A stretch of 63,000 bases of DNA, the filler included, from Nemertoderma westbladi (taxonomy: Eukaryota > Animalia > Xenacoelomorpha), in assembly GCA_032718475.1 (NCBI GenBank). It is 3 parts of 3 records of this genome, joined end to end, with 100 filler letters (N's around TTAATTAATTAA, not from the genome) between each part and the next. Parts side by side here need not be neighbours in the genome. Positions count along the whole stretch, not along the records: positions 20,132 to 45,084 come from JAUCBJ010003488.1; 2 more parts are not named here. One strand, written 5' to 3'. This document shows, piece after piece, positions 223 to 46,576 of the stretch. Below the pieces are notes generated by a model. The model was not told the origin of the DNA, searched no databases, and saw only the letters and a program-made list of their open reading frames with translations. The position numbers were made by a program, and so were the translations under genes. Each line of letters opens with the position of its first letter. Within the stretch, counting starts at the first letter, position 1.

Positions 223-3200
223 GTGAGCTTATTCATTGGTTCATTGGGTTGGTATTACTTCGTGTAACTTACTCATTGGTTCATTGTGTTTGTATTACAG
301 GAAGTGACTTACTTGTTGTTTGTTGGGGGTTGAATTGCTTCGTTTAACAATCTGTGATTGGCTGATTTCGGTTGTATTCAATGCGTGCAAACAAACAGCT
401 GATTGATTGTTCTATTTTGCAGAGTATGTGGGCAATTGCTTGGAACTCTGGTGTCGATGGTGATATCCTATTGTGTTGATCTTTATTTAATTATTTGTTA
501 ATGGTAAAACAATGCGAATATTTTGGCTATGATTGTTACACAAAGCATGTAGATTTAGGCCGGATGATAACTGTATGCGTGGTTGGAAATATGTGATGTA
601 TCATTGTATTGCGTGTGTGACTCAGTGTCGGCGATTTGTTTAGAGCAACAATGATAGCGGGCGGTAGCGGTATGTTTATGGAATGCGACTCAATCAATAC
701 GTGATGGTCCGCTCGCTTTCCTTTCATCGTCCACTTTGTAAGGCGCGATCTAAATGAAAAACATATGACGCCATTTTCCACACTCTATTAATAAGGCTGA
801 AAGCTCGCTTCCATTGATTAGTTTGGAATTCGGCATAAACTATTTGTGATTGTGGTGGCGGCCTCCCTTTGATGTGATCCAGGCGGTTTATTTCTGTAAT
901 CGATTTCTATTTATTCAGCGTCGCTTCTGCTATTACTTCTTCCCCCCAGTTATCCATCTATGAGTGAGTAGTTGGGCTGTATGACCGAGTTAATCGAACG
1001 GAACTCCCTAGATCTTCTCGAAAGATGATCAATCATGCGACCGGGTTCCTTCTAATTTTACAAAATATTTTAAGTTCTCTTTAACAGTTCATTATCATTG
1101 ATAATTATTAACTTCGTTAATTCGCCGAGAGATTTATTTTAATCCGCAGAGGTGTGGTTTGCGTCAAGTTTCCACTACTTTCTTGGTGTTCTGGGAACCC
1201 GTTGGGAGTGATATTGTGCGACTGGGTGATTAATGTTGAATTAGTTCCTCTCCTAGACAAAATAGTCTGCGATTGCGATATCTGGGAATGAGACAGATAA
1301 CCGTCAGATTGGACGTCCCAGATGTATACTACTAGTCATACTACCTGCTTCCATATATATTCAATGTGACACATTTTGATTAGAAAGGTAGACAGACGAT
1401 TTTAGTGCCGGGTGGTATAAGCCTTTTATCTTTGTCCTCCTAAAAAAAAGCCATATACTTGACTCAACTTGCAATTATTATGTTAGTAGTTGTGGAAATA
1501 TTGATATTGTTCATTCTGATTCAATGGTTGTCAACTATATCAGCTATAAAAAAAAACCATCATGTATGCGTTGAGTCATTACTCTCAACTCATAGTATAT
1601 AAGTAATTGTCAGTATTCTACATCAACCATTACATAAAGTATATTTAATTGCTTGTGTTTTGTTCATTTGGTTATCGACAGCAATATTTCAGTGATTTCA
1701 TATGGTAGGTCGATTTTCAGTTCCCCCTGTTATTCTTTATATATATATATACTGTATGAGTCACAATCATTGTCCCGATAATTGCCACTCTCAATCAATT
1801 AATGTAGAATTCTCACAATGAGTGACATTTCGTTGCTTGTCCAGATTCAGTCAATGTAACATTAATTGGTGTTTTGCCTTTACAATGTAGCTTTTCCCAG
1901 TCTTCATACTACTCTACTAATTTGTTGGGACTATTCAGCTACTACGCTGCAGAAATTGCCATTTACATTCGATTTCTTCAATGGCTACTAACATTGGGAG
2001 ATATTTAAATGGTCGTGGCTATTCTATCTGCCACAATTATCGGATGACATGTTGAAATTACCCTTTCCTGTTGCAATTTTCTTTGGATAAACGACTTCGA
2101 TTACTCCAGCTCAGTTACATGTATTTGTTGAAAGCCAGGAAGACTGCATGACAGGCTGTTTTTGCATTTAGCCTTTACCAAGAGAAACTATCATTATTTT
2201 CTCTTCCTCGGATTGTCAGGCTCAGATTTCATTTCACAGCTGAGTGAATCCTGTCCTGTCCTGTCCTCGCAGGATTTCCTTGGGGTCCTATTATTATATG
2301 CTCGCGTTCTTCTCGTTAAATCCGGGGACTTTAGGAAGCCCAGGTTGTTTATCCAATCTGGAATAATATGAGGGATTTAATGTCGGTCTCTCTGGTGGTC
2401 AATTAATTCCGTTAGGGTCATAACCAACTTGTTAGAGAGCTTATCTTTGAACACTCAGTAACGCCTGTGCCTGCCTGTACCATGGAGCCCGCGGGTAAGG
2501 TGCCTACATTATGCCGCACGGGATATGCCGTCAATCTAATGTGAAGGACCCGCTGTGATTAAGTTCCAAACGCTTTAATCCGTGGAAACTATATGCGCGG
2601 ATATAATCTTTTCCTTACAATTCTACCCCCTCCCTTGTTGATCCAACAATGTGCTCCCTTTTTCCCCTGCAACACTTCACGTACACTATGTTATTGATGA
2701 TATTCCTGGATGTGCTATTGCGGTACAGATCCACTTATTCCGCAGTGTCTACATGAACACCATCAGTGGATGTGTGATTGTTATTTCCATTCTAGGGTGG
2801 ATAAGGACATAAGTAAACCTGCGGCATGGTTTTCCATGGCCGCCAATCTTTTTGTGTAATTTGTATACAATTTCTGGAAATGGTTTGATATTCCACATAT
2901 GCTCCTTCCCATTGATTTCAATGAATATTGACGCATGCTGTGGTTGATGTATGTTCCATTTTATATATGAGTGATTACAATAAGGCATGCCTGTTGTTTT
3001 CCCATGGGAACTTTGTCTAATCATTATGTTTTCCCTGATGTTTTCCCCTTTTGGTGAGGGTTTTTTACATGCTCTATTTATGCCATAGTTTCCTGAATTA
3101 TATCCGGCTAGCCGCGAAATATTATTGTTTGCCAGCCCTGTGGGGAGTTCTTATCTTGTATGTGGATTAAATACCCCCAAGTTCTGGAATCCTATTTTCT

Positions 3201-4643
3201 TGAATTTCGCCTTAGATTCGCAATATTTATCTTTTTGAGACAAATAATGTACTGGATTGGAACTGTGAATTTGGTAAATTCGTTCATCCGTTGGTCTGCG
3301 ATTAATTTTTGTCGTCACGCCAACATCTAAAGGTCATAACATTTGCCAGCACCTAAAGCCATTTATACAATTTGTCGCAATTTTAAATCATTCATATCAG
3401 ATGGAGCTCCTAAGGGGGGTTTGGTTACACAATTTAACATTTTCTAATTATTCGATCCATAACAAATATACCGTATTGTTTCAGTGCAATTATTATTCAC
3501 GTGGGATAACACTTTATCCCCGATACAAATTATAATAAAATAATTAGTATCATTTCCTACAACTTGATGTTCAAAGGACTTCGACGTAGCCTTTATGCAA
3601 GATTTTACTAACAGAAACACAACCCCCGCCCGGATTGTCTTTGGTCGTAACCGTCTTCTTAACACTTCCACTGTTAGTTCCTTTGCATCATTTGTATGTG
3701 TTTGGGAAGAGATAACCCTGATTGATTATTTCAGTGTTGGACATTCTTTGATGCCTTATTGCCCGAGGTGTTTCCGTAATCTGAATGCTGTTCACCCTCG
3801 GATTTTGACTTGGTAGTTATGTATTGGGAATCAAAGGCGACAAGACGACAGATCCGATTGTATTCGTCTCTTCCTTCTGACTACAAACTAAATTGCCTCG
3901 TAAAACACTAGGTATTCCATTCTTCTTCCGGGGCCTTTGGGCGAGCTGATGCGTGCCTGCGGTAGGACGCGGGATTTATGGGACTATGAATAAGGAAGGC
4001 GGATTACCCTATACCAGTTACCTGAGCCGAGCGTGAGCGTGTGTGTATAAATATTATCCCGGGAGTTGTATTATTATTATTATATGCGCCTGGAATGGTT
4101 AGTTACTGCTGATCTGCTGTGCATCCATACGCAGTGGTTTCGCCCCCCAACCTCGGCAGGGAACACAGTTGTGAGTAACGCATGACCGATGTAGCCTGTC
4201 GCCAACCCCATTAGGCCATCTTACTGTATTTGAGCTTAATAGATGAGGTTTATCTTGACAATGCGACTTTGAACATTATCTCAAAGGCTTTGTGTTGGTT
4301 ATGACAATTATATGATGTCGGGATCTTGTTGGAACTTTTGCGATCCGCGGTGGTCTCAAGTGGGCCATACAACCGAACTTCCTTTGTGTTCCAAAGATAT
4401 ATTCCAAATGATGTTTCCACTTGTAATGGTTGGGGTTTGCTCCCGATCCGCCAATTAATTTTATTGCTTATAACAAGATGATGTTGAATTCCTAATGTTG
4501 TTCGCGTTCCTTCACTATGCGGTAACTGTAACCATAGATATTTTTTCATGATTAAACCCAGAATTGTTAAATATTGCAACTGCCGGTGTTAATTTTGTAT
4601 TGCATAACTTTAATTTAATTTTTGATATTATATTTTTGTGCAG

Positions 4644-19059: not shown

Positions 19060-20031
19060 TTATAGTTCCCCATCTTCCTTAAGTTTCTGAGATGGTGGCT
19101 TTGGACTGGGGCTTCTTCTCGCTTTAGCAGGTCCTCTCCAAGCCTGCCGCTCCCTTTCCTTTTTCATTTCATCTGCTTCCTTCTGCATTTTCAACATGTA
19201 GACTTCAATTTCCATATCTTCCTTCACTTTCGCTGCCAGATCTTTCTCCCCTGCTTTTGTCAGTTTCTTGATAAGGTACTCCTGTACGTCAACGGTGGTT
19301 CTTTGTCCCGGGTAGACGTCTCTGCTGCCGCCGTTAGCGAACCACATGATGGTGGGATATCCATTGACTTCCGCCGTCACACAGACGTCGTTGTCAGTGG
19401 TGCAGTCAACCTCCGAGACGAATATCTTATCGGAAGTCGCAAACTTCCCCGCCAATTCCTGCCACATGGCGGCCATCTCTTGACAGTGCGGACACCAAGG
19501 CGCAAAGAACTTCACCAAATGATAACCTTTCTTGATGAAATTTTTGTAAGTGAATTCAGTAAGTTTGTAGAGACCATTCTTCTCCACAACAGCCATTTCA
19601 TCTTCTTCCTCCTCATCTTCATCTTCTTCTGTTTGATCAGTTATCGGATCGTCTTCTATATTGCCTGTGGCTTCTTCCAATGCAGCTTTCTTAGCTTCAG
19701 CTTCTTTCGCCTCAGCTAAACCAGCCAACGTATCATCAAGAAACTTAACGAGAGCATCGAATGTGCGAGCTCCGTTGTATTTAATAGCATCTTCGCTGGT
19801 TCCGTCAGCAGCGAGGAATAGTTTCAATGTTGGGTAACTCCGGATTCCGTAACTAGCGCATACCTCAGTGTCTTTAGTGCAATCAGTATTAGCTATTATG
19901 ACTGGACTGTCTTCCGTGTTCTTCTTTTCTGCTAGTTTTTGCCAGGTGGGTGCCAGGTTCTTACAATGACCGCACCACGGCGCATAAAACATAACGAAAT
20001 GATGAGATTCTTGAAGTGATTCGTTAAAGTT
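19060..20031 (-). CDS. TXNDC5: TXNDC5/ERp46-like protein disulfide isomerase, 5'-truncated at segment end
   Basis: HFVMFYAPWCGHC and HLVKFFAPWCPHC thioredoxin domains, GYPT-like motifs, KDEL-like end DGEL; frame open up to the gap. Confidence 0.8.
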   Translation of the reverse strand, partial: NFNESLQESHHFVMFYAPWCGHCKNLAPTWQKLAEKKNTEDSPVIIANTDCTKDTEVCASYGIRSYPTLKLFLAADGTSEDAIKYNGARTFDALVKFLDDTLAGLAEAKEAEAKKAALEEATGNIEDDPITDQTEEDEDEEEEDEMAVVEKNGLYKLTEFTYKNFIKKGYHLVKFFAPWCPHCQEMAAMWQELAGKFATSDKIFVSEVDCTTDNDVCVTAEVNGYPTIMWFANGGSRDVYPGQRTTVDVQEYLIKKLTKAGEKDLAAKVKEDMEIEVYMLKMQKEADEMKKERERQAWRGPAKARRSPSPKPPSQKLKEDGEL

Positions 20032-20131
20032 NNNNNNNNNNNNNNNNNNNNNNNNNNNNNNNNNNNNNNNNNNNNTTAATTAATTAANNNNNNNNNNNNN
20101 NNNNNNNNNNNNNNNNNNNNNNNNNNNNNNN
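20032..20131. other. Artificial contig linker
   Basis: N44-TTAATTAATTAA-N44, with stops in all six frames. Confidence 0.95.
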
Positions 20132-21427
20132 CACTTTTCTTTTCGCTTCTGCCTCTGCCGCTGCCGCTGCCGCTTTCCTTTCCATTTCGTCGGCTTTACT
20201 TTCCTCTTCAGCTGCTTTCCTTTCAGCTTCGGCAGCTGCTACTGCTGCTTTCTTTCTGTCTTCTATACGTTTTTTCTTTACTTGCTTTTCTTGGACTCGT
20301 GTGATGCGGAGTTGTTCATCAAATTTAGCCTGGTTCGCAGCCCTCATTTCCACATCGATTGCGTCCAGCACAAGCTTGGTTCCTTCACTATTAGGGCTAA
20401 GCCCCTCTAACCTTCTCCTCAACTCGTCATCACCTAAAAAACGTTGATAGTCTGACAGATAGATGTCAATGGCATCCCTCTTATGCGGCTTCTCTGCCGT
20501 CGCTTCACTTTCCACTTGGGAAAAAGTAGCGTCTGTTGATTCTCCATGGGTTGAGCGCTCCTCCAGCTGAGCTTTCCACTGAGCTGTTCCTTGAACCTGG
20601 CGACTCACCCGTTGAAACCAAGTCTTTACGGCAACTTGCAACGACGTGTCTTGTCTTCTTTTAGAAGCCTCTTCAAAGGCTGATAATATTAGCCTGATTC
20701 GCAGAATTCTTTCTCTAACTTGATAAAGCAGTTGTCCCTGCTCTTGAGGTCCTTGAGGTTGTTGTAACAGTTGTTTTTCTATTCGCTCCATAGAGCTGAA
20801 GAATCCCTGTGCGTATCCGGCTGCGGACCTCTTCCACACAGCTGGATCGATGGTTTCCTTGGCTACTCCCATCCGGTGTATGTCTTCCCAGGCAGCTTCT
20901 GATAAATCAAACGGGAGTCCGGGTCTGGGGAAGTTCCATTGCGACTCGACAATAGACTTCAGTTCTTCCCTCGTGTATCCCGCATAACTATCTTTAGTTG
21001 ATCGCTGACTTCTCGCCCAATCGATCTGGTGTTCTTCCACCGCAATCAATAACCTAGTGAGTACGGCTGCAGGAAGGATGAGAAGGGGATCCGAATAAAC
21101 CGAATCCATCATCTTTGCTCCGCGTTCGGGTGTCAGCTCTACAGTATCCTCACTACTGGAGCTGTTGGGCCGTTGAGAAATAAGTTCTTGGCTCGCGGGT
21201 TGTTGCTGTTCTGCTGCTTCTTGGTCCCGCTTGACCTGAGCTCGAGTGCCTATGATAGACCTACGATGTTGGACCAGCCTAGGTTCTGTTATTACTACAG
21301 GAGGGATGACCTTCCTCACAGTGGGAGGTGAACTGAACTTACGACTAGACGGTTCTACGCCTCTATCTGAGTCGCAGATAGTTACATCTAATAAACTGTC
21401 TGACAGGTTCTGCTTAGTATCAGACAT
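20132..21427 (-). CDS. Uncharacterised ORF (>430 aa, coiled-coil C-part), 3'-truncated; possibly retroelement gag/ORF1
   Basis: Long ATG-initiated intronless ORF with EAERKAA-type repeats; no domain recognised. Confidence 0.55.
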
Positions 21428-21841
21428 GTTTATGTGTACAGTTGAATGCCTACTGCTATATTACAGTCTGAGCAAGTCTAGTAACTCAGTATTAACTGCT
21501 AGCCTAGTAATTAATTACCGATACTGCTACTCGGTGTAGCGTGATATATATAATATATTAGAATACCGGTATGCTTATAGTATATATAAGTATTATTACA
21601 GACTAGATTTATCACAGAATACCGGTATAATTTTAGCACAAATATATATAAATATATAATAGGCCTATCGGGAATACCGGTATACAGCTTACAGTTATAG
21701 TATATATAAGTATAATTCTGGACTAGAATTAATTATAAAGTACCGGTATAATTTCAGCCTAAATTTATAGAAATAAAGATAATAGGCCTATCGTAAATAC
21801 CTACGGTGGCTGATTGCGGCCAATTATTTCCATTTTTTTAA

Positions 21842-22286
21842 TGTTTATCACCCGGGTGAAAAACATTTATCACCCGGGTGAAAAACATTTATCACCCGGG
21901 TGAAAAACATTTATCACCCGGGTGAAAAACATTTATCACCCGGGTGAAAAACATTTATCACCCGGGTGAAAAACATTTATCACCCGGGTGAAAAACATTT
22001 ATCACCCGGGTGAAAAACATTTATCACCCGGGTGAAAAACATTTATCACCCGGGTGAAAAACATTTATCACCTGGGTGAAAAACATTTATCACCCGGGTG
22101 AAAAACATTTATCACCCGGGTGAAAAACATTTATCACCTGGGTGAAAAACATTTATCACCCGGGTGAAAAACATTTATCACCCGGGTAAAAAACATTTAT
22201 CACCCGGGTGAAAAACATTTATCACCCGGGTGAAAAACATTTATCACCTGGGTGAAAAACATTTATCACCCGGGTGAAAAACATTT
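21842..22286. repeat. Left subterminal array, 20 x 22 bp
   Basis: Unit tttatcacccgggtgaaaaaca with palindromic core TCACCCGGGTGA. Confidence 0.95.
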
Positions 22287-23127
22287 AAATGCTTAAAGGC
22301 ATTTGAATATTTTTTGATGTAAATCATTACAGGGTTTTATTTTTTAAATGTTTTTACAGCATATTGTAATGTGCCGTAAATTTTCTGTTAATAAATGGGC
22401 CTGTCAAATTACTACAAAACAGTAGGCCTATACAGTGAGTGTGATGTCATAGTTACCGTAGATAAACTGAAACTGACTGTAGTACATCCTGTGTGTGTAT
22501 AAGCTTAAAGGGCTACATACCGCAAGGCGCAAACAGAAATTGGTCGATTTAGGCTGTTTTCCAATGTGACAGCGGATAATAGATTTGTTTGTGCGTGATT
22601 TGGCGAAACAATGCATATCCAGTGACAAGATATTTTGTAAAAGTTATTACGTTTTAATTAATGCACAATGAGTCTGTTCACGGTCTGACGGTCGTCTAAA
22701 TAACAGCGTCTGGCAACTGGCAACCACGTACAACGTCTCCCTAAAGAACAAATAAGGCCTACTGGAAACCGCTCTGTTTGCTATAGCACTACTGCATTAT
22801 AACGACACCCCTAGCGCCTAGTACTTCCCGGTATATCAGTATAATAACTGATATACTGTACTGTACATAATCTAGTAACACGTGTTAACTTTCGTGTATT
22901 GTTTTGGTTCCCCCAAGCAGTTATTATCAACCAGACACACAAATAGGCCTATACTTACTTCATACAGCTAATACAGTAGTAGCTAAGTAAATTAAAACTA
23001 AAACTACTGTAAAAGTAAAATTCAAACTCTTGACATAACTATATCCTTGTTTGTATAAGCCTAAGGTGGTTGTAGTCTACTGTGCATACAATAAACCAAT
23101 ATTAGTTCCTTTAGGAAATTTTCCAGA

Positions 23128-25221
23128 ATGGCTGATAGAGTAGTTGGTGCGAAAGTTGGTGAAACTGTATCCAGCAACAAGAGACGGCTAATATCGAACT
23201 TACGTCATGATTTAAACACACGTATTGAGGAAATTCGTTCTGCTGTTGGTACCAGCTCTGGAACCAGCAGTCGCCCAAATTCTGCAGGCTTACCCCAAGG
23301 CCGGCCATGTAAGGAATGTAACACAGTAATTGTGAAGATGAAAGTTAAAGTAAGCGGTGATAGTTTTAACCAAGCAGTTTTAGTTAAAAAGCCACTTGGC
23401 GAGTCGAATGGGATGTGTATGAAGTTGCCAATGACAGAGAATATTGATACTGTTAGAGTGCTAATTGAGGATAAGGTATTTCCAGAAGGGACCGCTAATG
23501 AGTCTTTAATAAGGCAAGATTTTCCTGGATATAAGTCTGAATATGCATCCTTTGATTTGACAAACATGCTTGGGGACTCCCTAAGCACTTTTAAACATTT
23601 ACGTGAATACACTATAACGAAGTGTATCCATGGTACTTTGAAAATTTGTCTGTTGGGGTTTCTAACTGACTCTAATAGAAGTAACTTTGATGAGGACCTT
23701 GAACAATTGCTCAATGGGATAGATCATGTAGATGACGCTGAGGATGTTGTTACGGTGGAATCGTGTCGTATTATTTGCTCAGGTTGTGGTAGATCGCGTG
23801 AGGAATCGGAGGTTGACTGCTTTTTTTGCCGAATCCAACATGAAGTGAATGAGTCTATTAGAGTAGATAACTTTCGTCAACAACATCCTCGGAACATTCA
23901 AAGACCGGTTCGTTATGTTCGTTCTCTCGGAGGAGATGTTGCTGATTCAGACAGCACAAAGGAGGACAGTTGTACTGAAATTAATTCGAATTCATTGCAA
24001 CCCATGGGCCGAGAAGAACTGGCCAGTTATCACTCATCATTTTTTGGTGATCACCGTAACCCCACTTCTGAAAGTATGGAAAATGATATTTCTTTTTTCA
24101 AAGTATTGAGCAGCAAATTTGAGAGCTTCAAATCCTGCAATACATCATATACCATGTTTGAGATACCGCGGGCTAGGGTAGTGGAAAGTATCTACGATAT
24201 ACTTGAAGAATCCGAAATGTCTACTCCCATCATTATGACTAAGTTTATCGGTGAAGATGGCGTTGACACAGGAGGTCTGACTCGTGATATGTTTTCGTTG
24301 TTCTTTTGCCATCAAAGTGGAGAGCTATTTCGTGGAACATATCCGAAATTTGCGTTTCGACACAATATTGGGTGTCTAGATAAATTTGAATTCCTTGGTA
24401 GAATGACTGCCCTAGCTTTGTTGAATGGCGCACCGGGGCCGCACTTCTTCTCCCCATCTGTAGCTTCATCCATTCTCGAGATTCCTTATTCGGTTAACAT
24501 TGATGAGCTACCTTTAGAAGAGAGCGATATCATAGAGAAGATTAAAGCATTGGATGACGTAAAGGATGAAAAAGCTTTCTCCGATTTAGTTGGAAACTTC
24601 AGTGAAAGGTTTGAAATGGGTTTAACATCAGCTCAGATTTCATTCGAAGAGAAGAACTCTGCAATAGAAATTCTTTGTCGCCATATTCTGATTAGCACAT
24701 GTATGGAGGAGATTCAAAGTTACAGGAAAGGCTTGCAATTCTTCAGTGTTTTGGATATTATGAAGCTGTATCCTGATGATGCTCTGAAAGAGCTCATCCA
24801 TGAGCTTGTTACAGTAGACGATGTTAAACGTTGCTTCAGTCCATCATACACATCGCCTGATAAATCTAGGGAGAGAGAAAAAGAACAAGAAATTGCTTTT
24901 AAGTTTAATATGTTCTTAACAAAGGTCAGTAAAGGATTACTCAAGGCCCAAGTTTATGACTACGAGTGCGATGCAACAGAAGAGAAAGTGCTAAGTCTTG
25001 GCGATATATTGCAGTTCGGTTCAGGATCTCGATTTCCCAACTTTAAGGGAACGTTGCAGTTTGATAGAACGGATGATAGTCAGCGACGAGTTAATTCGGA
25101 TACATGCGCAATGATTATTCATTTTCCGTTGAATGATAGATATCTCTTAGGGTCAACTAAAAAGTTCTGCCGTAACGTGGCTGACGATATTTTTGATGAT
25201 CTCGGATTCGGTCAGATATAA
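23128..25221 (+). CDS. Transposon-borne HECT-domain E3 ubiquitin ligase (G2E3-like)
   Basis: KFIGEDGVDTGGLTRDMF, FEFLGRMTALALLNG, SDTCAMIIHFP (catalytic Cys position), C-terminal GFGQI; CxxC..CxxC motif upstream. Confidence 0.82.
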   Translation: MADRVVGAKVGETVSSNKRRLISNLRHDLNTRIEEIRSAVGTSSGTSSRPNSAGLPQGRPCKECNTVIVKMKVKVSGDSFNQAVLVKKPLGESNGMCMKLPMTENIDTVRVLIEDKVFPEGTANESLIRQDFPGYKSEYASFDLTNMLGDSLSTFKHLREYTITKCIHGTLKICLLGFLTDSNRSNFDEDLEQLLNGIDHVDDAEDVVTVESCRIICSGCGRSREESEVDCFFCRIQHEVNESIRVDNFRQQHPRNIQRPVRYVRSLGGDVADSDSTKEDSCTEINSNSLQPMGREELASYHSSFFGDHRNPTSESMENDISFFKVLSSKFESFKSCNTSYTMFEIPRARVVESIYDILEESEMSTPIIMTKFIGEDGVDTGGLTRDMFSLFFCHQSGELFRGTYPKFAFRHNIGCLDKFEFLGRMTALALLNGAPGPHFFSPSVASSILEIPYSVNIDELPLEESDIIEKIKALDDVKDEKAFSDLVGNFSERFEMGLTSAQISFEEKNSAIEILCRHILISTCMEEIQSYRKGLQFFSVLDIMKLYPDDALKELIHELVTVDDVKRCFSPSYTSPDKSREREKEQEIAFKFNMFLTKVSKGLLKAQVYDYECDATEEKVLSLGDILQFGSGSRFPNFKGTLQFDRTDDSQRRVNSDTCAMIIHFPLNDRYLLGSTKKFCRNVADDIFDDLGFGQI

Positions 25222-26118
25222 CTCAACTTGTTAAACTTGGTTAGATATAGCTAAACTTGTATACTACAACCCAGAACTGCCAACCGAACTTTGAATACTT
25301 TGTTTATTACGTAGTGAAACTTTTAGAAGTTTTTCATTTTTAGTACAATTGATGTGTCTTAGTAAAGATTTAAATGTGTTTGAACGTTAAAATGTTTAAT
25401 TTATTAACAAGGGAGGGTGTGCAAGCAAAGGCGGGGTGGGTTGGGTGGGGCGATAAATCCTTTAGAGCAATAAATAAGCATAATAAAATAAAAATAAGAT
25501 AAAAAATATATGCATAAATTTGCAGCGCCACCTACTGTAGTGGTGCAGAATTATTTTCACAAAATTTCGCCTGATAATTATGTTGCCCCATCTTTGATCT
25601 ATCACATAAAAAACTTTAATTTGATTAGATTCAAAACTATAAAAGTACTAGTATTAACTAATATTAAATAGCGAAAAATAAAATTTATATGACCCCCCCC
25701 CCCCCCCCCCCGATATGGATCATATAAATTTTATTTGTTTATTTTAATATTAATAGTTAAATTTAAGAATACAATTAAATACTACGTGGGAAATAAACGT
25801 ATAACATTTAATTATATTACTGGGGCGAGGGGGGGGGGGGGGGGGGGGGGGGGTGCATGGATTTTAAAATAATTATTGGATTACACAAATCGATCAATCA
25901 AACATTAATAATTATTATTAAGGTCAACATTTTTAATTAGTAATTAATTAATTATTAATCATTAAATGCATATATATGCATTTTCGGTGGACTACTGTAT
26001 ATTGAATTGAAATTACCCCCCCCCCCCCCCCCCCCAACTTAAAGATTGAACCTTCCCGAGCAAAAAATGTCTGTAATACCTAAGAAAGTCTGTCAATATA
26101 TTATATTGATATTAGATT

Positions 26119-27267
26119 TTATGATCGTTCAATATTATTTAAAAGGTAACTACATGTGTTCTCACAGTCAGTCAAGTTCTGACAGTTAGCTGGTGTCTTG
26201 ATCGTTGGGGGCGCCTCATCTTCTGCAAGAATGTAGTCTCCAGCCAACTCCATAGAGCGAATGCAAGTTGGGTTTGAACTGGTAAATATGTTCAGTAGAT
26301 TGATATCATGATCACTAACAGTTTCTATATAGTTCGGTACGTCAAGGTATAACAAATCTGGTTTACCTCCCGGTGATATCAAACTACTAGTGCGAATTCT
26401 GTGGCTATTCCATCGTTGCTTTATAAGATTCAAGACACGCTGTAAGTAGTTCATATAAGTGAAGCGTACAACCTGCACATGAAGTTCGTCGTCGAAGTTA
26501 ATGACACCGTTTATTGCTAACTCGTTAAAGTGTGTTAACCATTCCGACATTCCCAAAACTGGGAATTTGGACCACCAGGCCTCAATTCTTTGATTCCTCG
26601 AACTCTTCCCCTGGATATATGCGCATCCTGCAGTACTTCTTATCCTGCAGAACTTCTGAATGATTTCTATGTTCACATTCTCTGTGCCACGATCTGTACG
26701 TACTATATGTGGGACGCCGCCAATATCTTTTATTGTTTCTAGGAAGTAACCGGCCACTACAAAGGGGTCGTTATTAGTACTCGAACACTTAAGCCATAAT
26801 ATACGTCTACTGTAACCGTCGATTGCTCCATGAACAGCAAATCCAAATGGTTTTAATTTGTCCCACCCATCAACGTGCATGAGAAAGTTGGGACCCTTCG
26901 CCTGGTAAGTCCTGCGAACTAGTTTCCTAGAAATTCTAGTCTGTAAAGCTTCAGGATTGAAAATCTCCAATAAACTAGCGATGAGTTTTCGAGGGACGAA
27001 TAATTTATGTTCAGTCATTAATATTTGCTGGAGTTGTCTGTATCCACATGTAGGACGACTATTGGCTTCCTCCTCTATAATTGAAAGTGTTTGTTCGAAT
27101 TGTTGAACATTTAGACGTCGTGATAGACCAAGGTTATGTACATATCGCCGAATAGTTCTATGAGATCGTATTATACTGTACTTTTCAAACAGCAATCGTG
27201 TGATCTCTTTATATGTGAAGCCATCCCAGAAAAAGTTTTGTATGACAGAGTGAATATCCAAATCCAT
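26119..27267 (-). CDS. DDE transposase/integrase core (IS3EU-type) with N-terminal HTH
   Basis: GPNFLMHVDGWDKLKPFGFAVHGAIDGYSRRILWL, VRTDRGTEN, SSRNQRIEAWW give the D-D-E triad. Confidence 0.9.
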   Translation of the reverse strand: MDLDIHSVIQNFFWDGFTYKEITRLLFEKYSIIRSHRTIRRYVHNLGLSRRLNVQQFEQTLSIIEEEANSRPTCGYRQLQQILMTEHKLFVPRKLIASLLEIFNPEALQTRISRKLVRRTYQAKGPNFLMHVDGWDKLKPFGFAVHGAIDGYSRRILWLKCSSTNNDPFVVAGYFLETIKDIGGVPHIVRTDRGTENVNIEIIQKFCRIRSTAGCAYIQGKSSRNQRIEAWWSKFPVLGMSEWLTHFNELAINGVINFDDELHVQVVRFTYMNYLQRVLNLIKQRWNSHRIRTSSLISPGGKPDLLYLDVPNYIETVSDHDINLLNIFTSSNPTCIRSMELAGDYILAEDEAPPTIKTPANCQNLTDCENTCSYLLNNIERS

Positions 27268-27404
27268 AAAAATTGCTAGTACTAAACACCTACACTATGA
27301 TGCTAGACAGGAACATTACAATGTAAAAACATTTAAAAAACAAAATAATTTATTGATTTACAACAAAAGATGCGAATTATTTTAAGCATTTAAATGTACC
27401 CTGT

Positions 27405-27910
27405 AATTTCACCCGGGTAATAAATGTTTTTCACCTGGGTGATAAATGTTTTTCACCCGGGTGATAAATGTTTTTCACCCGGGTGATAAATGTTTTTCAC
27501 CCGGGTGATAAATGTTTTTCACCCGGGTGATAAATGTTTTTCACCCGGGTGATAAATGTTTTTCACCCGGGTGGTAAATGTTTTTCACCCGGGTGATAAA
27601 TGTTTTTCACCCGGGTGATAAATGTTTTTCACCCGGGTGATAAATGTTTTTCACCCGGGTGATAAATGTTTTTCACCCGGGTGATAAATGTTTTTCACCC
27701 GGGTGATAAATGTTTTTCACCCGGGTGATAAATGTTTTTCACCCGGGTGATAAATGTTTTTCACCCGGGTGATAAATGTTTTTCACCCGGGTGATAAATG
27801 TTTTTCACCCGGGTGATAAATGTTTTTCACCCGGGTGATAAATGTTTTTCACCCGGGTGATAAATGTTTTTCACCCGGGTGATAAATGTTTTTCACCCGG
27901 GTGATAAACA
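27405..27910. repeat. Right subterminal array, 23 x 22 bp, inverted relative to left
   Basis: Unit tgtttttcacccgggtgataaa. Confidence 0.95.
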
Positions 27911-28944
27911 TTAAAAAAATTGAAATAATTGGCCGCAATCAGCCACCGTAAATACCGGTATACCAATTATTTTAAATAATTGAATTTCTGAATTTTAGGG
28001 TTACTTGGTTACTTTACTTACTTTATTACCGTTATTTGAGCAGTAGTCCAACTGATATTGAGACCTAATGGGTGTATGGCAGGCCTACTATTTATAAATC
28101 GTTTGAGTTGATTTATAATATATATATACCCGTTGAAATGGGTTTTTGTCAATGTTTGAAATAAATGTTATTATTTCTGGGGAGTAATCACTACACAAAG
28201 CGGTGCGCTTTCAGTGAAGTGTTACTTATAGGACACTAAAACAAATAATGCTAATTTACCTAAGTTACTTAATACTACAAATTACGTACAATTCGGGTGA
28301 GATTACAATCTCTAAATAAACACAAAAATTTACAAAAACACAAAATACAAATTTTCAGGGTAATTTTACAAGAAGTCTACAAACCAGCCTAACAAAGGGT
28401 TAGAATCTGGTTATTACAACGGACAGGGTACTGCGGTATTTGAAAATAATACGTAGTAGTAAATACACTGCGTTGTCCAGATAGGAAAATACCACCGCCT
28501 GACGACCTATAGCCGTATCGCTATAGGTACTACGTTATGTATCACGGAGTGTTCCTACCTAGAAGTTAATAGAGCTAATCGAACGTGCCTATCAACCACT
28601 TTACAACACAAATATAATGCCTATACTAATTACTTTCGGAAAGCACTGTACACTAAACCCTAAATTAGGTACGAGTACTTGTACAACATATAATCGGTAG
28701 TTAAATATACTTGAACAGCTAAAAGAACCACGGCATCTGCTGGAGTGACCGGTGCACAAAATCACCAGTCTTTACCTACGCCAAGCAGCCCGTGTAGTAC
28801 CGGGGTTAATTTAACTATAGCGGTATGTATAACAAACACAATTATTGTAGGAACAAACTTGGGGAATGAATGTTGCGAATAATCGCATAAACTCTGAATA
28901 ATAAATATTACACTACGCGTACAAACCACTCAAACAAAATGCAG

Positions 28945-29475: not shown

Positions 29476-29575
29476 CAATATGATCAGGCTTACACGCCTT
29501 CTGTTCAATACTGGCCTACAAATAAATAAAACTGACAGAAATAAGTAAGCTCCAAAAGAAACAAGGGGTGTACAG

Positions 29576-32327
29576 TAGGGTGTTACAAAAATCACTTTTT
29601 TGCCCCAATTGCTTGGAAACTTCGACATTTTTTGCCATTTTAATGTAGAAGTACAATGCAAAAAACCGTTTTGAAAAATATTTAGTGGAAGAGGTATCAC
29701 ACGAGTCACAAAATCTGAGAAATTTAACAAAATATAGCAGTTTTAATTTACCGATAAATCTAGCGATAGATGATTGCAATGATCTGAAACTCATGTTATG
29801 TAATGCATTTATCATGGGCTTTCCAATAACGTTTTTGGCATTGTGAAATTGACAAGATCAGATGTGTCACATTGAGTTTGAAAAATTGAATTTTTTTTAA
29901 AAATCTAAGAAATTTAACAAAATATAGCAGTTTTAATTTACCGATAAATCTAGCGATAGATGATTGCAATGATCTGAAACTCATGTTATGTAATGCATTT
30001 ATCATTTCTACAATTTCAAAATTGAAGATCAAAATGTATGAAAACTGAGTGTGTTCCTCTCCTTACCAGTACTATGTACTTATACTACTACTACTTCATC
30101 TACTACTAAGTTACTCCATGACCCTTTTGTTTTGCTTCATTCATAAAGGCCATGCAACAAAGTACTGAAGTAGGGCAGTAAGGTGTGTTACTACAACAAC
30201 AACAGTACAATAATATTAAATTGCAGCATTTGCACAATTACATATATTTTAAAATTACAAATTTAATAATAGGTGATTTTGTTAAATTCGTACAGTTAAA
30301 CCGATCCGGTAGGCCACTACCAATTTTTGGATGGAAAACTGCCAATGTCGGAAGACTGCTAAAGTCGGTAGGCTGGAAGGCAGTCGGTAAGCCCGACTCA
30401 ATGTGAGCAGACAATGAAGAGAACAAACATTTGGCTCATCAACGCGACATCACCAGGAAGAAACTTGAGATGGAACAACGCAAGGAGGCATTAATTCTAG
30501 AACAACAAAGACAGTTGGCTGCGGCCAAACCGCAACAGAAGGCCTATGAATTGGAGGATCGACAGCAACGGACTGCTCAAGAACTCGAGCTCAAGAACTA
30601 ATCAGCAGCCTGAACCATCGATTGTGCGCTTCAACGAGATACATGGAGCCGACACCATAGAAGCACATCAACATTATGCGCAATAAATCTATAGACTGGT
30701 TGCCAAGGATTGGGTGGACCCAGTGGATGCAGGGACTCCTGGAAACCAGGTAAGTCACCCCGGAGGTTGCCATGAGCCCGAACCTAGACACCAATTAGAA
30801 CCAACCACACCTCAGGTAACACTCTTTGTCTTGAATCCCATACGACCTCAAGTAGAGTCTCGATAAAGATTTGTGATTAACGAAGGTGATCAAGCCGAGT
30901 GGGATGGAGCTCGAGACAGTGAGCGGTTTAATCCAAGTCCTACTCCAGGTAAACCCAACATCCATATGTATCAATTAAATGTAGCAATTAGGGAAGGTAA
31001 TAAGGAGGTGTGGGATGAAGTCATCCATAGAAAAAGGTAAAGTCCAACATATTCAGTCACAAGTCCATCAGGTGCAGGGACAAGTTCAAACTGTATGTGG
31101 TGTTGTGCAAGAAGTGCAGCAAAGAATTCAGTACGTCAAAGTTCAGGTGGATAAGGAGTTCGACCATGTTAGGTGTAATATCCCTGAGGTCAATGACAAT
31201 GTAGAACGAGATCAACATGAGAATGAAAAGCTTAGAGTACAGGAACAACAGTACCAACGTCCTGAAGACCATCCCAAGTTTAAACCACGAATGCCCAGTT
31301 ATAAATATTCAGGCAGACTCAGAGTTTGAGACTGACTATAGATCACCAGTCAGTGAGAAGGTAACCTATCACGGGACGAATTCGCGTACTCGTCCACAGG
31401 TAAGTTATCCTACTCATCAGTTGAACCGATTCCAACTTATGTCCATCAACGGGTAGGAAGGGAAGACAATACTATGGTCAACTCAATCACAGTGGAGTTT
31501 TCTAAGTTCAGTCCGAGACACAGTCTTCCACCATTACATCCTCCGCACTTCACTGGTTTATCTAAACATTGGAGAACCTTCATCAACTATATCAAGACTA
31601 ATGTCGCTCAACAGGATTTCTCACCGACTGAGAAATTCAACTACTTATACCAACAGTTGAGAGGTCAACTGAAGGAATTGGTAAGTACGTTTATAGGTGA
31701 TGAGAATGCCTCTGAGGAGGCTTATGACAGGTTAGTTACTGTGTATCGCGGCAATGTAAAGATGGCCAGGTCAGTAATAGTTGAACTAACTCAAGGGGGA
31801 CCAGCACATTCCCATATAGAATTAGTTAAGTTTTCAAACTCAATTTGACACATCTGATCTTGTCAATTTCACATTGCCAAAAACGTTATTGGAAAGCCCA
31901 TGATAAATGCATTACATAACATGAGTTTCAGATCATTGCAATCATCTATCGCTAGATTTATCGGTAAATTAAAACTGCTATATTTTGTTAAATTTCTTAT
32001 ATTTTTTAAAAAAATTCAATTTTTCAAACTCAATGTGACACATCTGATCTTGTCAATTTCACAATGCCAAAAACGTTATTGGAAAGCCCATGATAAATGC
32101 ATTACATAACATGAGTTTCAGATCATTGCAATCATCTCTCTAGATTTATCGGTAAATTAAAACTGCTATATTTTGTTAAATTTCTCAGATTTTGTGACTC
32201 GTGTGACACCTCTTCCACTAAATATTTTTCAAAACGGTTTTTTGCATTGTACTTCTACATTAAAATGGCAAAACATGTCGAAGTTTCCAAGCAATTGGGG
32301 CAAAAAAGTGATTTTTGTAACACCCTA
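29576..32327. mobile_element. hAT-type non-autonomous element with long TIRs
   Basis: Ends tagggtgttacaaaaatc.../...gatttttgtaacacccta; 8-bp TSD GTGTACAG (29568-29575, 32328-32335); arms ~430-500 bp, each with a 190-bp internal repeat. Confidence 0.85.
30400..31830 (+). pseudogene. Degenerate BEL/Pao gag (DUF1759-like) fragment
   Basis: LPPLHPPHFTGLSKHWRTF...EKFNYLYQQLRG...EEAYDRLVTVY at 31474-31830, preceded by broken coiled-coil ORFs. Confidence 0.7.
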
Positions 32328-33974
32328 GTGTACAGTCCCTAATCTCTTAAACAGCCTACCGGTATACAATAATCAAATCGAATAATACTAATGTACTTAT
32401 ACGGGAAGTACCGGTTAGGACAGTTAGGCCTACGGACCTACAGAAGTACCGGTTCTGGCAGTTGGACCTACGGACCTACGGCAGTACCGGTTCTGGCAGT
32501 TGGGCCTACTGACCTACAGATGTACCGTTCAGGTTTACCGGTTGACCGGTACTTTCAACTTTATTGCTTACTGCAATAAAGAAGCTATATCCGTTATTGT
32601 TCGCGCTTTCAGACCTTTGGCAGTTTAACCCGACAAATTAGGATGTCTTCTAGATAATAAATTACTTTTAGCCTCTGACAAATATTTGATTCACTACACT
32701 AGTCGAAACCAATCTGTGCGCGATCATTCACCCGCTGGATATACCCGGGAGATTGGGTTCGACGGCTTAATCTTATTGCTAGGTAAGCCTAATGTATTAT
32801 TCGATTGACAGTATTATATAATCTCTGACAATATTATTCACCTTCGGGGAATATTAACAGTTCCTTTAGGACGTGGCGCTCTATCTATATAAACAGAGTT
32901 ATGACTTAAACTACTCACAACGATATGGATTAGTTATAATTCACATATATGGCGCATTCTTTAGGAAATGCTTCGTTATCAGTCTCACTCATACACAATA
33001 CTGCACAATACTGCACACTAATCTGCCGATCTTCACTGATTTTAGTCACATATAAAAGGAACACAGACAAACTCATGTAGGGTCTATCAAATAACATTAG
33101 ATTCACTTCAAACCACTTTAACATGAGTCACAATCGTTATATGTAACCTTTCTCTCTTACCTTCGGTATATCAAGAATATTGGGTTTCGGGGTTATTTCT
33201 CGTTATTCCAAATATAATAATTCATCAACAAATATAATGAATAACCGACAGCAAAGCAGTAATGTTAAGTTAAGTTGCACAGTATGGGCCAGTTAACCAG
33301 ATTTGTTATGTAGTGCAGTTATGTTATGTTTAGTTTGATAACGGATATATGTCCCTATAATTAAGCCTACTAGTGTTAGGCTAAAACAGAAAAGCACAAA
33401 ATATTCCCAAGCCGCTCTCTCCTGGCTCAGGACAGAATGTAAACACTGCACATAATGCATTGAGTGATTTCTAGGAAATCTCTGTACAAGAGCCATAAAA
33501 ATGCTCTGATTGGCTGACTGAACTGAGAGACGCCGTAGAACAAAGAAAATCGACACATATGAATATCAGCTGTTAACCGCCGTCATAGTAACTACTGTTC
33601 AAGAGTAGCTATCCCCTTTTGCGTCACGGAATTGCCATAGAATCATCAACTATGCCTTCCACAGTACACATACGGAGGAAATAGCTCTTAGATCCTCTAA
33701 AAAACACCGATACAGCAATAATACGGTCTCTTACACCTATTAAATCAACTACAGAGTATTTTAATGTAAAAATTAATAAAAATAACGGGGCAATTCAGCA
33801 AAGGCTTTTACAGTGTTGTCACCTTCATCAGAAAGCGTGAGAAAAGCGTAGAAAGGGATTAAGAACCCAGGAGAGATACTCAAGGACCTTGATTAGTTGC
33901 CTTATGAGAATTACTTCTTGTTGATATCCGTTTGGATTGTGAATTCTTTTTGGTGAGGCTGAGGTTAAGCGGAT

Positions 33975-39778: not shown

Positions 39779-41109
39779 AGTAGTAATGGTTTGCCCTATC
39801 CTTCGGCGACAGTTTGGACCCACTTCGCACCTTGGGTGTTAAGTAGGTCATTAATTAATTAATCAATTAATTAATTGGTCGATTAAACAATTAATTAATT
39901 GTTTAATCAATCGATTTGTATCAAATAATGTTGCCAAAGGCAATTTAATTTGATACAAATCAATCAGATAGGGACGCGAGATGAATAAATTGTACTACAG
40001 CAAATGAAATATACAATACAATAGGCACTGTACATTACAATATACAATACATTTGTATTATTTTTGCCGTACAATAGAATGATAGAATTAAATAAAAAGA
40101 CGCAATCGAGGCCCAAAACATAAATATACCCTTTCACGAAAATAAAGTGGCCCCAGTTTGGCCCCGAGTCATCCCTCAATAATCTGTGGCTGTTTGGGCT
40201 CTTATTAACCGTAGCATGACTAACCCAAACATCAATGCGTGAATGGGGCCTGCGTGAATGGGGCCTGCGACAGAGCTTAAATTATTCAAACCCACAGCTT
40301 CCCAAGAAATTAGAATAAACATCTGCTCTTGCAATAGATTGCATTCTTTCATATTGTACTTTATGAAGCAGTCCACGCGCGTCTGACCGCACATAATTAA
40401 ATAAGGCCCTCATTTAATACATAAGTTATATACAGTTTATCTTAAATTTATTGAATTTGTTTTTATTTACAACCCGAATTGTTCTACCGTATTATAATTT
40501 ATGTTTTATTATAACAAGCTATATCCTGTTAATCTTATTAATTTTATTTGTACTGAGGTTTTCGAGGGCGCTGTTTCCAATGGTCCTACTCTCAAAACGA
40601 TGTAACCTACTGTATAATTAATTACTTAAGTCTGCGAGGTATGCGTAAGTAACAAATCTCGTTTACCAGTTTTCCTTAAAAACTATGAAGCTATATTGCT
40701 TAAGAGTTCTGAGGGGCGAGCCATGAGGCAAGGTGTTTGATACTTTTTAGATATATTATTACTTAATTTTGACCCCCCAGTCGATATCTATTACAATATA
40801 GGCTATATCTTTTTGCGGAGTCACAGAGTAGTCTGAAGATCCGAGTCTGCTGCTAGAGGGTGAAATGTCTCAAAGTAAAAACCATACGGTAGCTATGAAT
40901 TGGTTACTAGGCAATAATACTACATTTTGTATAGTTAGGCCTATTGCCGATCGAACGAAAACTGCCCTGGTCCATGAGAGGATTGAACCCACGACCTATT
41001 GGAGATGTGAATTCAAAGCAACCACTACACCAAGGTGGAACAGTAACGTTTGAATTTGTTCGTTAACGTTCGAATTTGTAAGACTCTGATTTAAGACCTG
41101 AGGCACTCC

Positions 41110-42001
41110 CCACAACCACAGCCACAGCCACAGTCACAGCCACAGCCACAGCCACAGCCACAACCACAACCACAGCCACAGCCACAGCCACAACCACAGC
41201 CACAACCACAGCCACAACCACAGCCACAGCCACAACCACAACCACAGCCACAACCACAGCCACAACCACAACCACCACAGCCACAGCCACAGCCACAGCC
41301 ACAGCCACAGCCACACCACAGCCACAGCCACAGCCACAACCACAGCCACAACCACAGCCACAACCACAGCCACAACCACAGCCACAGCCACAACCACAGC
41401 CACAGCCACAACCACAGCCATAACCGCAGCCACAGCCACAGCCACAACCACAGCCACAGCCACAGCCACAACCACAGCCACAACCACAGCCACAGCCACA
41501 ACCACAGCCACAGCCACAGCCACAACCACAGCCACAACCACAGCCACAGCCACAGCCACAGCCCACCCAGCCACAGCCACAGCCACAGCCACAGCCACAG
41601 CCACAACCACAACCACAGCCACAGCCACAACCACAGCCACAGCCACAACCACAGCCACAACCACAGCCACAGCCACAGCCACAACCACAGCCACAGCCAC
41701 AGCCACAGCCACAACCACAGCCACAGCCACAGCCACAGCCACAGCCACAACCACAACCACAGCCACAACCACAGCCACAGCCACAGCCACAGCCACAGCC
41801 ACAACCACAGCCACAACCACAGCCACAGCCACAGCCACAGCCACAGCCACAACCACAGCCACAACCACAGCCACAGCCACAGCCATAGCCACAACCACAG
41901 CCACAACCACAGCCACAGCCACAGCCACAACCACAGCCACAACCACAGCCACAACCACAGCCACAACCACAGCCACAGCCACAGCCACAGCCCACAGCCA
42001 C
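41110..42001. repeat. (GCCACA/ACCACA)n microsatellite, left arm
   Basis: Hexamer run seen directly. Confidence 0.97.
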
Positions 42002-43075: not shown

Positions 43076-43326
43076 TATATAGCAATGTCAATTAATAGTA
43101 TTGAATTTTCGATAAATGATTTTACAAAATTTTAAATAAATAAAACTTTTATTAAAATAAATAAAACTTTTAAAAATGAAAATTAGAGAATGAATGAGAA
43201 TGCAGTGAATGGGGGCTATTATAGAGGGAGGCTAGAATGGAGTTGTGAAAAAGAATAATCTATTGCAAACCAGATGTTTCTTGAATTTTTCTCAGGCGTA
43301 TTTGATAATAAAGTGGCTGAAGGTGA

Positions 43327-43881
43327 GGCTGTGGCTGTGGCTGTGGCTGTGGCTGGGTGGGCTGTGGCTGTGGCTGTGGTTGTGGCTGTGGCTGTGGCTG
43401 TGGCTGTGGCTGTGGCTGTGGCTGTGGTTGTGGCTGTGGCTGTGGCTGTGGCTGTGGCTGTGGCTGTGGCTGTGGCTTGGTGTGGCTGTGGCTGTGGCTG
43501 TGGCTGTGGTTGTGGCTGTGGCTGTGGCTGTGGCTGTGGTTGTGGCTGTGGTCTGTGGCTGTGGCTGTGGCTGTGGCTGTGGCTGTGGCAGTGGCTGTGG
43601 CTGTGGCTGTGGCTGTGGCTGTGGCTGTGGCTGTGGCTGTGGCTGTGGCTGTGGCTGTGGTTGTGGCTGTGGCTGTGGTTGTGGCTGTGGCTGTGGCTGT
43701 GGTTGTGGCTGTGGCTGTGGCTGTGGCTGTGGCTGTGGTGGCTGTGGTGTGGCTGTGGCTGTGGCTGTGGCTGTGGTCTGTGGCTGTGGTTGTGGCTGTG
43801 GCTGTGGCTGTGGCTGTGGCTGTGGCTGTGGCTGTGGTTGTGGCTGTGGCTGTGGCTGTGGCTGGGTGTGGCTGTGGTTGT
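43327..43881. repeat. (TGTGGC)n microsatellite, right arm
   Basis: Hexamer run, inverse of the left arm. Confidence 0.97.
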
Positions 43882-43954
43882 GGGGAGTGCCTCAGGTCTT
43901 AAATCAGAGTCTTACAAATTCGAACGTTAACGAACAAATTCAAACGTTACTGTT

Positions 43955-44030
43955 CCACCTTGGTGTAGTGGTTGCTTTGAATTCACATCTCCAATAGGTC
44001 GTGGGTTCAATCCTCACATGGACCAGGGCA
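43955..44030 (+). promoter_or_regulatory. tRNA-like Pol III A/B boxes in TIR (mirror copy ~40962-41038, minus)
   Basis: TGGTGTAGTGG ... GGTTCAATCC with tRNA-like spacing. Confidence 0.5.
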
Positions 44031-45084
44031 GTTTTCGTTCGATCGGCAATAGGCCTAACTATACAAAATGTAGTATTATTGCCTAGTAACCAATTCATAG
44101 CTACCGTATGGTTTTTACTTTGAGACATTTCACCCTCTAGCAGCAGACTCGGATCTTCAGACTACTCTGTGACTCCGCAAAAAGATATAGCCTATATTGT
44201 AATAGATATCGACTGGGGGGTCAAAATTAAGTAATAATATATCTAAAAAGTATCAAACACCTTGCCTCATGGCTCGCCCCTCAGAACTCTTAAGCAATAT
44301 AGCTTCATAGTTTTTAAGGAAAACTGGTAAACGAGATTTGTTACTTACGCATACCTCGCAGACTTAAGTAATTAATTATACAGTAGGTTACATCGTTTTG
44401 AGAGTAGGACCATTGGAAACAGCGCCCTCGAAAACCTCAGTACAAATAAAATTAATAAGATTAACAGGATATAGCTTGTTATAATAAAACATAAATTATA
44501 ATACGGTAGAACAATTAGGGTTGTAAATAAAAACAAATTCAATAAATTTAAGATAAACTGTATATAACTTATGTATTAAAAGAGGGCCTTATTTAATTAT
44601 GTGCGGTCAGACGCGCGTGGACTGCTTCATAAAGTACAATATGAAAGAATGCAAACTATTGCCATACCAGATGTTTATTATAATTTCTTGGCGAATTGAT
44701 GTAATAACGAAGCTATAGGTTTGAATAATTTAAGCTCTATCGCAGGCCCCATTCACGCAGGCCCCATTCACGCATTGATGTTTGGGTTAGTCATGCTACG
44801 GTTAATAAGAGCCCAAACAGCCACAGATTATTGAGGGATGACTCAGGGCCAAACTGGGGCCACTTTATTTTCGTGTGAGGGTAATTTATGTTTTGGGCCT
44901 CGATTGCGTCTTTTTATTTAATTCTATCATTCTATTGTACGGCAAAAATAATACAAATGTATTGTATATTGTAATGTACAGTGCCTATTGTATTGTATAT
45001 TTCATTTGCTGTAGTACAATTTATTCATCTCGCGTCCCTATCTGATTGATTTGTATCAAATTAAATTGCCTTTGGCAACATTAT

Positions 45085-45788: not shown

Positions 45789-46576
45789 TATCTGAGGCCC
45801 CTATAGGGACATCTTACCATTTTTTCACTACAAAATTAGTCGGGATCCCGCAATAGTAACTCGAGATATTAATTCGGGATCCTGAGATAATAAGTCGAAG
45901 TCGGGATCCTGAGAGTAACTCGGGATTCCGAGATAGTATCTCGGGATTCCGAGATAGTATCTCCGGATCCCGAGATAAAAGTCGGAATCCCGCGATAGTA
46001 ACTCGGGATCCTGAGATAAGAAGTCGGGATCCCGAGTTAATAAGTCGGGATCTTAAGATAATAAGTCGGGATCCTGAGATAAGAAGTCGGGATCCCGAGT
46101 TAATAAGTCGGGATCCTAAGATAATAAGTCGGGATCCTGAGATAATAAGTCGGGATCCTGAGATAATTTGAACAACATTTGATTGGCTGGGTTGTGTTGG
46201 CTGGATTGTTTGGCGGCTTATAAGATTACACAGTTACATGTCAGATGGCCTACATACAGATACGCCATTACTGTCAGATTGTGCCTAAAACAAGAGTTAT
46301 GCACTGAACAATGTTGCTATGTAAATACAGAAGTACGAAGTATAGGCATGTCTGTATGTAGGGTAGGCTATAGTACACTAGATAATAATTTTACTGCACT
46401 GTGCTTCGCAATCATTTAACATTATAATCTTTTAAAAATCCCGCGAAAAACAACACAGCCAACCAACGCCAACACAACAGCCAATCAATGTTAATCATTG
46501 TTCAAAATATCTCGGATCCCGACCCGACTTATTATGTAGAACAAAATTGGCGAGATGTCCCTTTAGGGGCTCCGTA
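45789..46576. mobile_element. Degenerate MITE with palindromic tandem array
   Basis: Imperfect TIR gcccctatagggacatct / agatgtccctttaggggctccgta; ~21-bp units with core tcgggatcccga at 45838-46165; no TSD found. Confidence 0.55.

Follow-up and report, generated by a model that had tools for sequence, protein, structure and literature searches.

IS3EU/GingerRoot elements are defined, in the available text of PMC10045372, by TA..TA ends and usually by 6-bp target-site duplications (TSDs). Two further papers describe IS3EU as encoding two proteins (PMC10853768) and its structure and function as largely unexplored (PMC11934779); the second protein of this superfamily can now be named. The window analyzed here, a stretch of 63,000 nucleotides of DNA from Nemertoderma westbladi (assembly GCA_032718475.1), contains a 6.1-kb transposon at positions 21802-27950, in the part that comes from JAUCBJ010003488.1. 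Like the elements in the accessible passages of PMC10045372 and PMC6839031, it has TA..TA ends, a 6-bp TSD and an integrase-like DDE core. It differs in that its second protein is identified as a probable HECT ubiquitin ligase, an identity that those passages do not give, and in its terminal inverted repeats (TIRs), which are 486 nt long with tandem arrays while those of GingerRoot are given there as 100-150 bp. The element thus belongs to a known superfamily, and what appears to be new is a conserved HECT ligase partner with a swappable catalytic domain.

IS3EU elements of rust fungi have a comparable arrangement. In the portions of PMC12730594 and its supplement that were available, the transposase is accompanied by an oppositely oriented gene for a protein-modifying enzyme, and cargo is exchanged between lineages; the partner there is an alpha-kinase or a TET/JBP dioxygenase, however, and neither HECT nor ubiquitin appears. 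No mention of ubiquitin was found in the available parts of PMC10045372, PMC6839031, PMC12730594, PMC11934779, PMC10853768 and bioRxiv 2021.09.26.461848, and none of HECT in those where it was looked for. The IS3EU-HECT pairing was not found in the literature searched; Repbase entries and subscription papers were outside the search and may contain a record of it. Other transposons carry ubiquitin-system cargo, namely an F-box protein and a SUMO protease in Zisupton and OTU proteases in Ginger1 and Helitron. These too are DNA transposons with a ubiquitin-system enzyme, but their cargo consists of proteases or adaptors that are often fused to the transposase, whereas the element in the window has a stand-alone ligase gene.

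The element and its transposase

The initial annotation described near-perfect TIRs with TAC..GTA ends, an exact 6-bp TSD (AATACC) and two open, convergent open reading frames (ORFs), and all of these were found again. The left terminus starts TACGGTGGC and the right terminus finishes GCCACCGTA; the two TIR arms have six mismatches (99% identity). Each arm consists of a terminus of about 43 nt and a tandem array in which a 22-nt unit, palindromic at its core, is present at least 20 times. These arrays are absent from the initial annotation and are likely to be binding sites for the transposase. Neither ORF is interrupted; as a control for ORF length, 200 shuffles of the interior sequence gave stop-free runs of 165 aa at most. 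The boundaries are independently supported, since excising the element with one AATACC copy in silico rebuilds a unit of the local repeat, a second example of which is found upstream near 21620-21720. The main parts of the element are as follows.

21796..21801, no strand: left TSD, AATACC, in flanking sequence
21802..22287, + strand: left TIR, a terminus of about 43 nt starting TACGGTGGC and then about 20 copies of the 22-nt unit with palindromic core
23128..25221, + strand: ORF1, 697 aa, intronless and open, the HECT protein
26119..27267, - strand (27267-26119): ORF2, 382 aa, open, the DDE transposase
27465..27950, - strand: right TIR; the 22-nt array extends inward to about 27407
27951..27956, no strand: right TSD, AATACC, bordered by a very high-copy repeat

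The element ends in the bases CGTA (27947-27950), which also occur at 21792-21795, just before the left TSD; this may be chance.

ORF2 has the features expected of an IS3EU transposase. It matches Pfam rva_4 (E 5.5e-35), with weak helix-turn-helix matches near the N-terminus, and its predicted catalytic residues D133, D192 and E229 are within conserved motifs; the first Asp is in the range of 100-300 residues from the N-terminus that is given for IS3EU/GingerRoot. Compared by eye with the alignment in the available supplement of PMC10045372, the core motifs agree with those of Repbase IS3EU-4_CGi and IS3EU-1_DR. The relatives of ORF2 are many but distant: 855 were found at E<=1e-20, of which the 120 listed are 36-50% identical, and 2522 representatives at E<=1e-10. 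Named relatives occur in corals and a brachiopod; together with host-like genes near the element, they point to a eukaryotic host that is probably an animal. No relative of ORF1 or ORF2 was found in the viral contigs scanned. On the basis of its ends, its TSD, DDE motifs compared by eye and a second encoded protein, the element is an intact IS3EU/GingerRoot cut-and-paste DNA transposon, as the initial annotation had proposed.

The HECT protein and its pairing with the transposase

ORF1 is likely to be an E3 ligase with the HECT fold, and E2-dependent thioester formation and ubiquitin transfer are predicted for it. Pfam HECT was matched above its cutoff (E 4.8e-8, 33.4 bits, cutoff 23.9). The AlphaFold2 (AF2) model of the domain has a predicted local distance difference test score (pLDDT) of 90 and a predicted template modeling score (pTM) of 0.85. 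All of the listed top Foldseek matches to this model are HECT ligases (best E 3.6e-14), and a profile of 27 family sequences matched HUWE1, Rsp5 and E6AP in the PDB over both lobes (positions 24-357, best E 2.5e-24). ORF1 has both the two-lobe domain and the Cys of the C-lobe catalytic motif.

24130..25218, + strand: HECT domain, both lobes, about residues 335-697 (AF2 model, Foldseek)
25105..25107, + strand: codon of the predicted catalytic Cys660, invariant in 21/21 aligned domains; the profile pairs its motif with the HUWE1 catalytic motif

The bilobed fold, the catalytic Cys motif and a Phe four residues from the C-terminus are shared with HECT E3 ligases such as HUWE1, Rsp5/NEDD4 and E6AP. 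ORF1 differs from these and from G2E3 in being encoded by a transposon, in being only about 15-18% identical to solved HECT domains, and in having no WW, RCC1 or G2E3 PHD modules. The Pfam match, the fold model, the Foldseek matches and the conserved Cys all agree with the claim of the initial annotation that the element would encode its own E3 ligase. The copy in the window is small and intronless and both of its ORFs are open, so that an E3 ligase encoded by a transposon can be put to a direct test.

Databases label the relatives of ORF1 'G2/M phase-specific E3', but residues 1-334 have no Pfam family and no chromatin-reader domain in the Pfam scan, and orthology to G2E3 is ruled out because of the missing Pfam family. 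The N-terminal PHD and zf-HC5HC2H modules of the G2E3-like Atlas cluster are absent from ORF1. The N-terminal part has CxxC pairs at 61/64, 217/220 and 231/234; a Cbl RING at 206-249 was rejected as a weak match (E 0.71). A fold model of full-length ORF1 built from five sequences was unusable (pLDDT 32). A predicted complex of the transposase with ORF1, made without alignments, scored 0.00 and is evidence for neither side. Four direct homologues of ORF1 were found, 41-44% identical. Four members of the clusters of these homologues, on four Paramuricea contigs, are mutually 99-99.9% identical, in line with copies of a transposon.

The HECT gene recurs beside the transposase in related elements. 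Loci were fetched by means of the transposase only. Of 537 relatives that this gave in metagenome contigs, the best 80 were used, and Pfam was run on 58 chosen ORFs of these loci (at least 130 aa, plus two shorter). HECT was found in 20 loci at E<=0.05, and 13 loci exceed the Pfam cutoff. A HECT profile seeded with those 13 loci, ORF1 of the window and P0004 was positive in 27/80 loci. The fraction was 21/32 for loci with at least 2 kb downstream of the transposase and 14/18 for those with at least 3 kb. Every profile hit (33/33) is downstream of the transposase on the opposite strand, so that the genes are convergent, and reversed-ORF controls gave 0 hits. There are 21 near-complete pairs (20 loci and the window), which form 17 groups at 70% transposase identity. 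The element at one locus, L076, is complete: it has TIRs, its 6-bp TSD copies match and both genes are present. L075 is of the same family with a different flank and site. L039 has the nearest HECT relative (41%); it has TIRs at both ends, with non-matching flanks. The initial annotation had allowed that the HECT ORF might be confined to this copy, but the pairing is recurrent and not a one-off capture.

UBX matches were found in the N-terminal ligase exons of five loci (L005, L006, L009, L017 and L020), two of them above the Pfam cutoff. By eye, these exons also have a SAM-like start. L002, L009, L020, L021, L024, L052 and L076 have subterminal tandem arrays that resemble the 22-nt arrays of the window; their short units differ in sequence from array to array, and in this set many contigs end at the arrays.

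Sequence conservation suggests that the HECT gene is maintained. The predicted catalytic Cys is kept in all 21 near-complete domains, which are 12-41% identical to that of the window. The ratio of nonsynonymous to synonymous substitution rates (dN/dS) was obtained from 12 pairwise comparisons, six of which were saturated or nearly so and one of which had a single change. HECT dN/dS is 0.20, 0.16, 0.20 and 0.06 in four pairs with dS <0.3, the first two being pieces of one locus pair; a pair of N-terminal exons gives 0.24, and transposases of relatives give 0.09-0.15. By these ratios the HECT gene in related elements is under purifying selection, and the range of 0.06-0.24 does not fit neutral evolution of this gene, an alternative that the initial annotation had named.

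In contrast to a strict co-phylogeny, which is ruled out, the catalytic domain has a history of its own. Pairwise identities of transposase and HECT domain are moderately correlated in the 21 pairs (Mantel rho 0.45, p=0.001), but their trees are discordant; the transposase tree is a quick version in which the transposase of the window is on a long branch. The transposase sisters L012 and L026 were rejected as a group in the HECT tree by the approximately unbiased (AU) test (p-AU 8e-69), and so was the transposase group of L020, L009 and L005 (p-AU 6e-10); both groups were picked after inspection of both trees. The co-phylogeny proposed for testing in the initial annotation therefore stands as a moderate correlation of identities and fails at the level of sister groups. 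Judged from these trees, the catalytic HECT domain is exchanged between transposase lineages. The N-terminal module of the ligase follows the transposase, with rho 0.86 in eight elements and rho 0.77 (permutation p=0.012) in the seven that are left when a near-duplicate is removed; in those seven the HECT domain gives rho 0.12 (p=0.23). This pattern suggests either a match between module and transposase or an element of which only the middle is exchangeable. The HECT domain of the window is sister to that of L039 (support 99/98) while their N-termini are unrelated, so the window protein fits shuffling.

Possible roles of the ligase

The HECT gene is very probably a dedicated functional partner of the transposon. 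The pair recurs in relatives under purifying selection, and the ligase is therefore likely to be a working part and not a chance passenger. From what is known of the two families, the ORF2 transposase would bind the TIR arrays, cut and integrate with a 6-bp stagger, and Cys660 of ORF1 would accept ubiquitin that host E1 has activated and a host E2 passes on. The N-terminal module would select the substrate. Tentatively, this substrate may be the transposase complex of the element itself, which is favored on the grounds that the transposase is tracked by the N-terminal module and that five relatives have UBX matches. The ligase would ubiquitylate the complex, which would then be removed or turned over, serving transposition. 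The UBX domain is a p97 adaptor, and ClpX is known to remodel the MuA complex; UBX-bearing relatives may act in a similar way, by tagging the complex for extraction by p97. It is possible, though more doubtful, that IS3EU as a whole is a two-component superfamily that brings its own ligase to tag and dismantle or time the transposase complex, that this ligase combines an N-terminal adaptor matched to the transposase with a catalytic domain that can be swapped, and that many multi-copy 'G2E3-like' animal genes are its genes. Expansions of such genes in animal genome papers may then be transposon copies; in the available part of PMC9700323, 20 copies of G2E3 were interpreted as a deep-sea adaptation.

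Several observations weigh against a ligase that serves its own transposase. Some families recur more than once among the 80 loci. Four of the 18 loci with at least 3 kb downstream lack HECT (L021, L053, where a long interspersed nuclear element is inserted, L056 and L064), and L023 is a complete, TSD-flanked element of 2.9 kb without it. L052, whose transposase is of IS3EU type with motifs like those of the window, has a convergent protein kinase gene (2956-4352, - strand) at the HECT position; its second TIR was not seen. Tracking of the transposase by the N-terminal module may be a mere result of a TIR-matching constraint that leaves only the middle of the element exchangeable. It also does not cover the window protein, because the ORF1 N-terminus has no Pfam family and no match to either N-terminal profile of the relatives; a resemblance to their module was seen by eye only and was rejected on these negative profile tests. 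Within the species, variation in ORF1 looks neutral. Among the between-sample variants listed (40 of 162, not a random sample), 29 are in ORF1, with 7 synonymous, 22 replacement and no stop, against a neutral expectation of 21% synonymous (p=0.65), and a variant in one sample alters a conserved N-lobe motif. In ORF2, 4/5 of the listed variants are synonymous. The ORF1 variants fit ordinary decay of copies after insertion. The initial annotation had called the element young and possibly active: its youth is plausible from the open ORFs and 99% TIRs, but the listed HECT variants, fitting neutral change, do not speak for activity.

Viral E3 ligases counter host defence, and the ligase could likewise be an anti-silencing or host-manipulating factor that ubiquitylates host chromatin, PIWI-interacting RNA (piRNA) or DNA-damage proteins and so frees the element. 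The kinase of L052 suggests that this position can take protein-modifying enzymes in general, and fast divergence with exchange of the catalytic domain would suit a conflict. Also, in the available text of PMC12730594, the transposase of fungal IS3EU elements is accompanied by an alpha-kinase in opposite orientation, and in some elements by a TET/JBP dioxygenase that is proposed to counter methylation. Such a role is nevertheless less likely than action on the transposase complex, as the N-terminal module tracks the transposase, dN/dS is low wherever measurable, and the Pfam scan of ORF1 gave no chromatin-reader domain.

Double-strand-break repair is controlled by ubiquitin, and this general knowledge, together with the insertion within a very high-copy repeat, would suit a ligase that acts on repair or checkpoint proteins of the host where the element is excised, or one that directs integration to particular chromatin. 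The argument comes from one insertion site, and a role at the break is improbable. Least probable by far is the neutral capture, once, of a G2E3-like host HECT gene. The database name of the relatives, the intronless ORF1 and the neutral look of the within-species variants are what a passenger would predict, but the pairing recurs in fixed orientation, the Cys is invariant, dN/dS is at most 0.24, the nearest relative (L039) is likewise inside TIRs, and ORF1 has no PHD or zinc-finger family of the G2E3 type.

Copies in the species and other features of the window

TIR ends of the element appear to be far more common than full elements. Contigs of two samples span the whole interior; apart from two nested repeats, their depth there adds up to about 15-360, and the summed depth of the TIR terminus is in the thousands; these values hint at an excess of ends, contig depth being no copy number. 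The two nested repeats are listed below.

22866..22916, no strand: fragment of an unrelated very high-copy repeat within the element (depth spike, loose ends)
25533..25647, no strand: fragment of a different very high-copy repeat, in the spacer that separates the stop codons of the two ORFs (contig depth)

Little of the interior was covered in run X5, which proves no absence. In a contig of a third sample, the sequence on either side of the TIR end is different, so the TIR is not limited to this copy, as the initial annotation had thought it might be. Sites without the element were seen as well: nine contigs of X1 join the left and right flanks directly, but as the flanking sequence is a very high-copy repeat, these sites may be paralogous. 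In run X3, all 13 listed differences of a 1.6-kb contig are within 23992-24413 (420 nt) and none are in the preceding 1.1 kb, which suggests a mosaic of copies.

The window has other repeats and genes outside the element. Immediately to its left, 19060-21460 contains an ORF resembling thioredoxin or protein disulfide isomerase (PDI) and a 447-aa ORF without a Pfam match, interrupted by N gaps. At 29569-32334, inverted repeats of 437 nt (98% identical) enclose 2.8 kb with a DUF1759 fragment (31357-31848), with no clear-cut TSD. A 1.8-kb inverted duplication (95%) is formed by 39925-41694 and 43313-45084, with long simple repeats between and within its arms. Finally, a non-autonomous element of about 0.8 kb at 45790-46576 is decayed; its left end is worn and it has no clean TSD, and its ends resemble the termini of another IS3EU family (L025 and L079).

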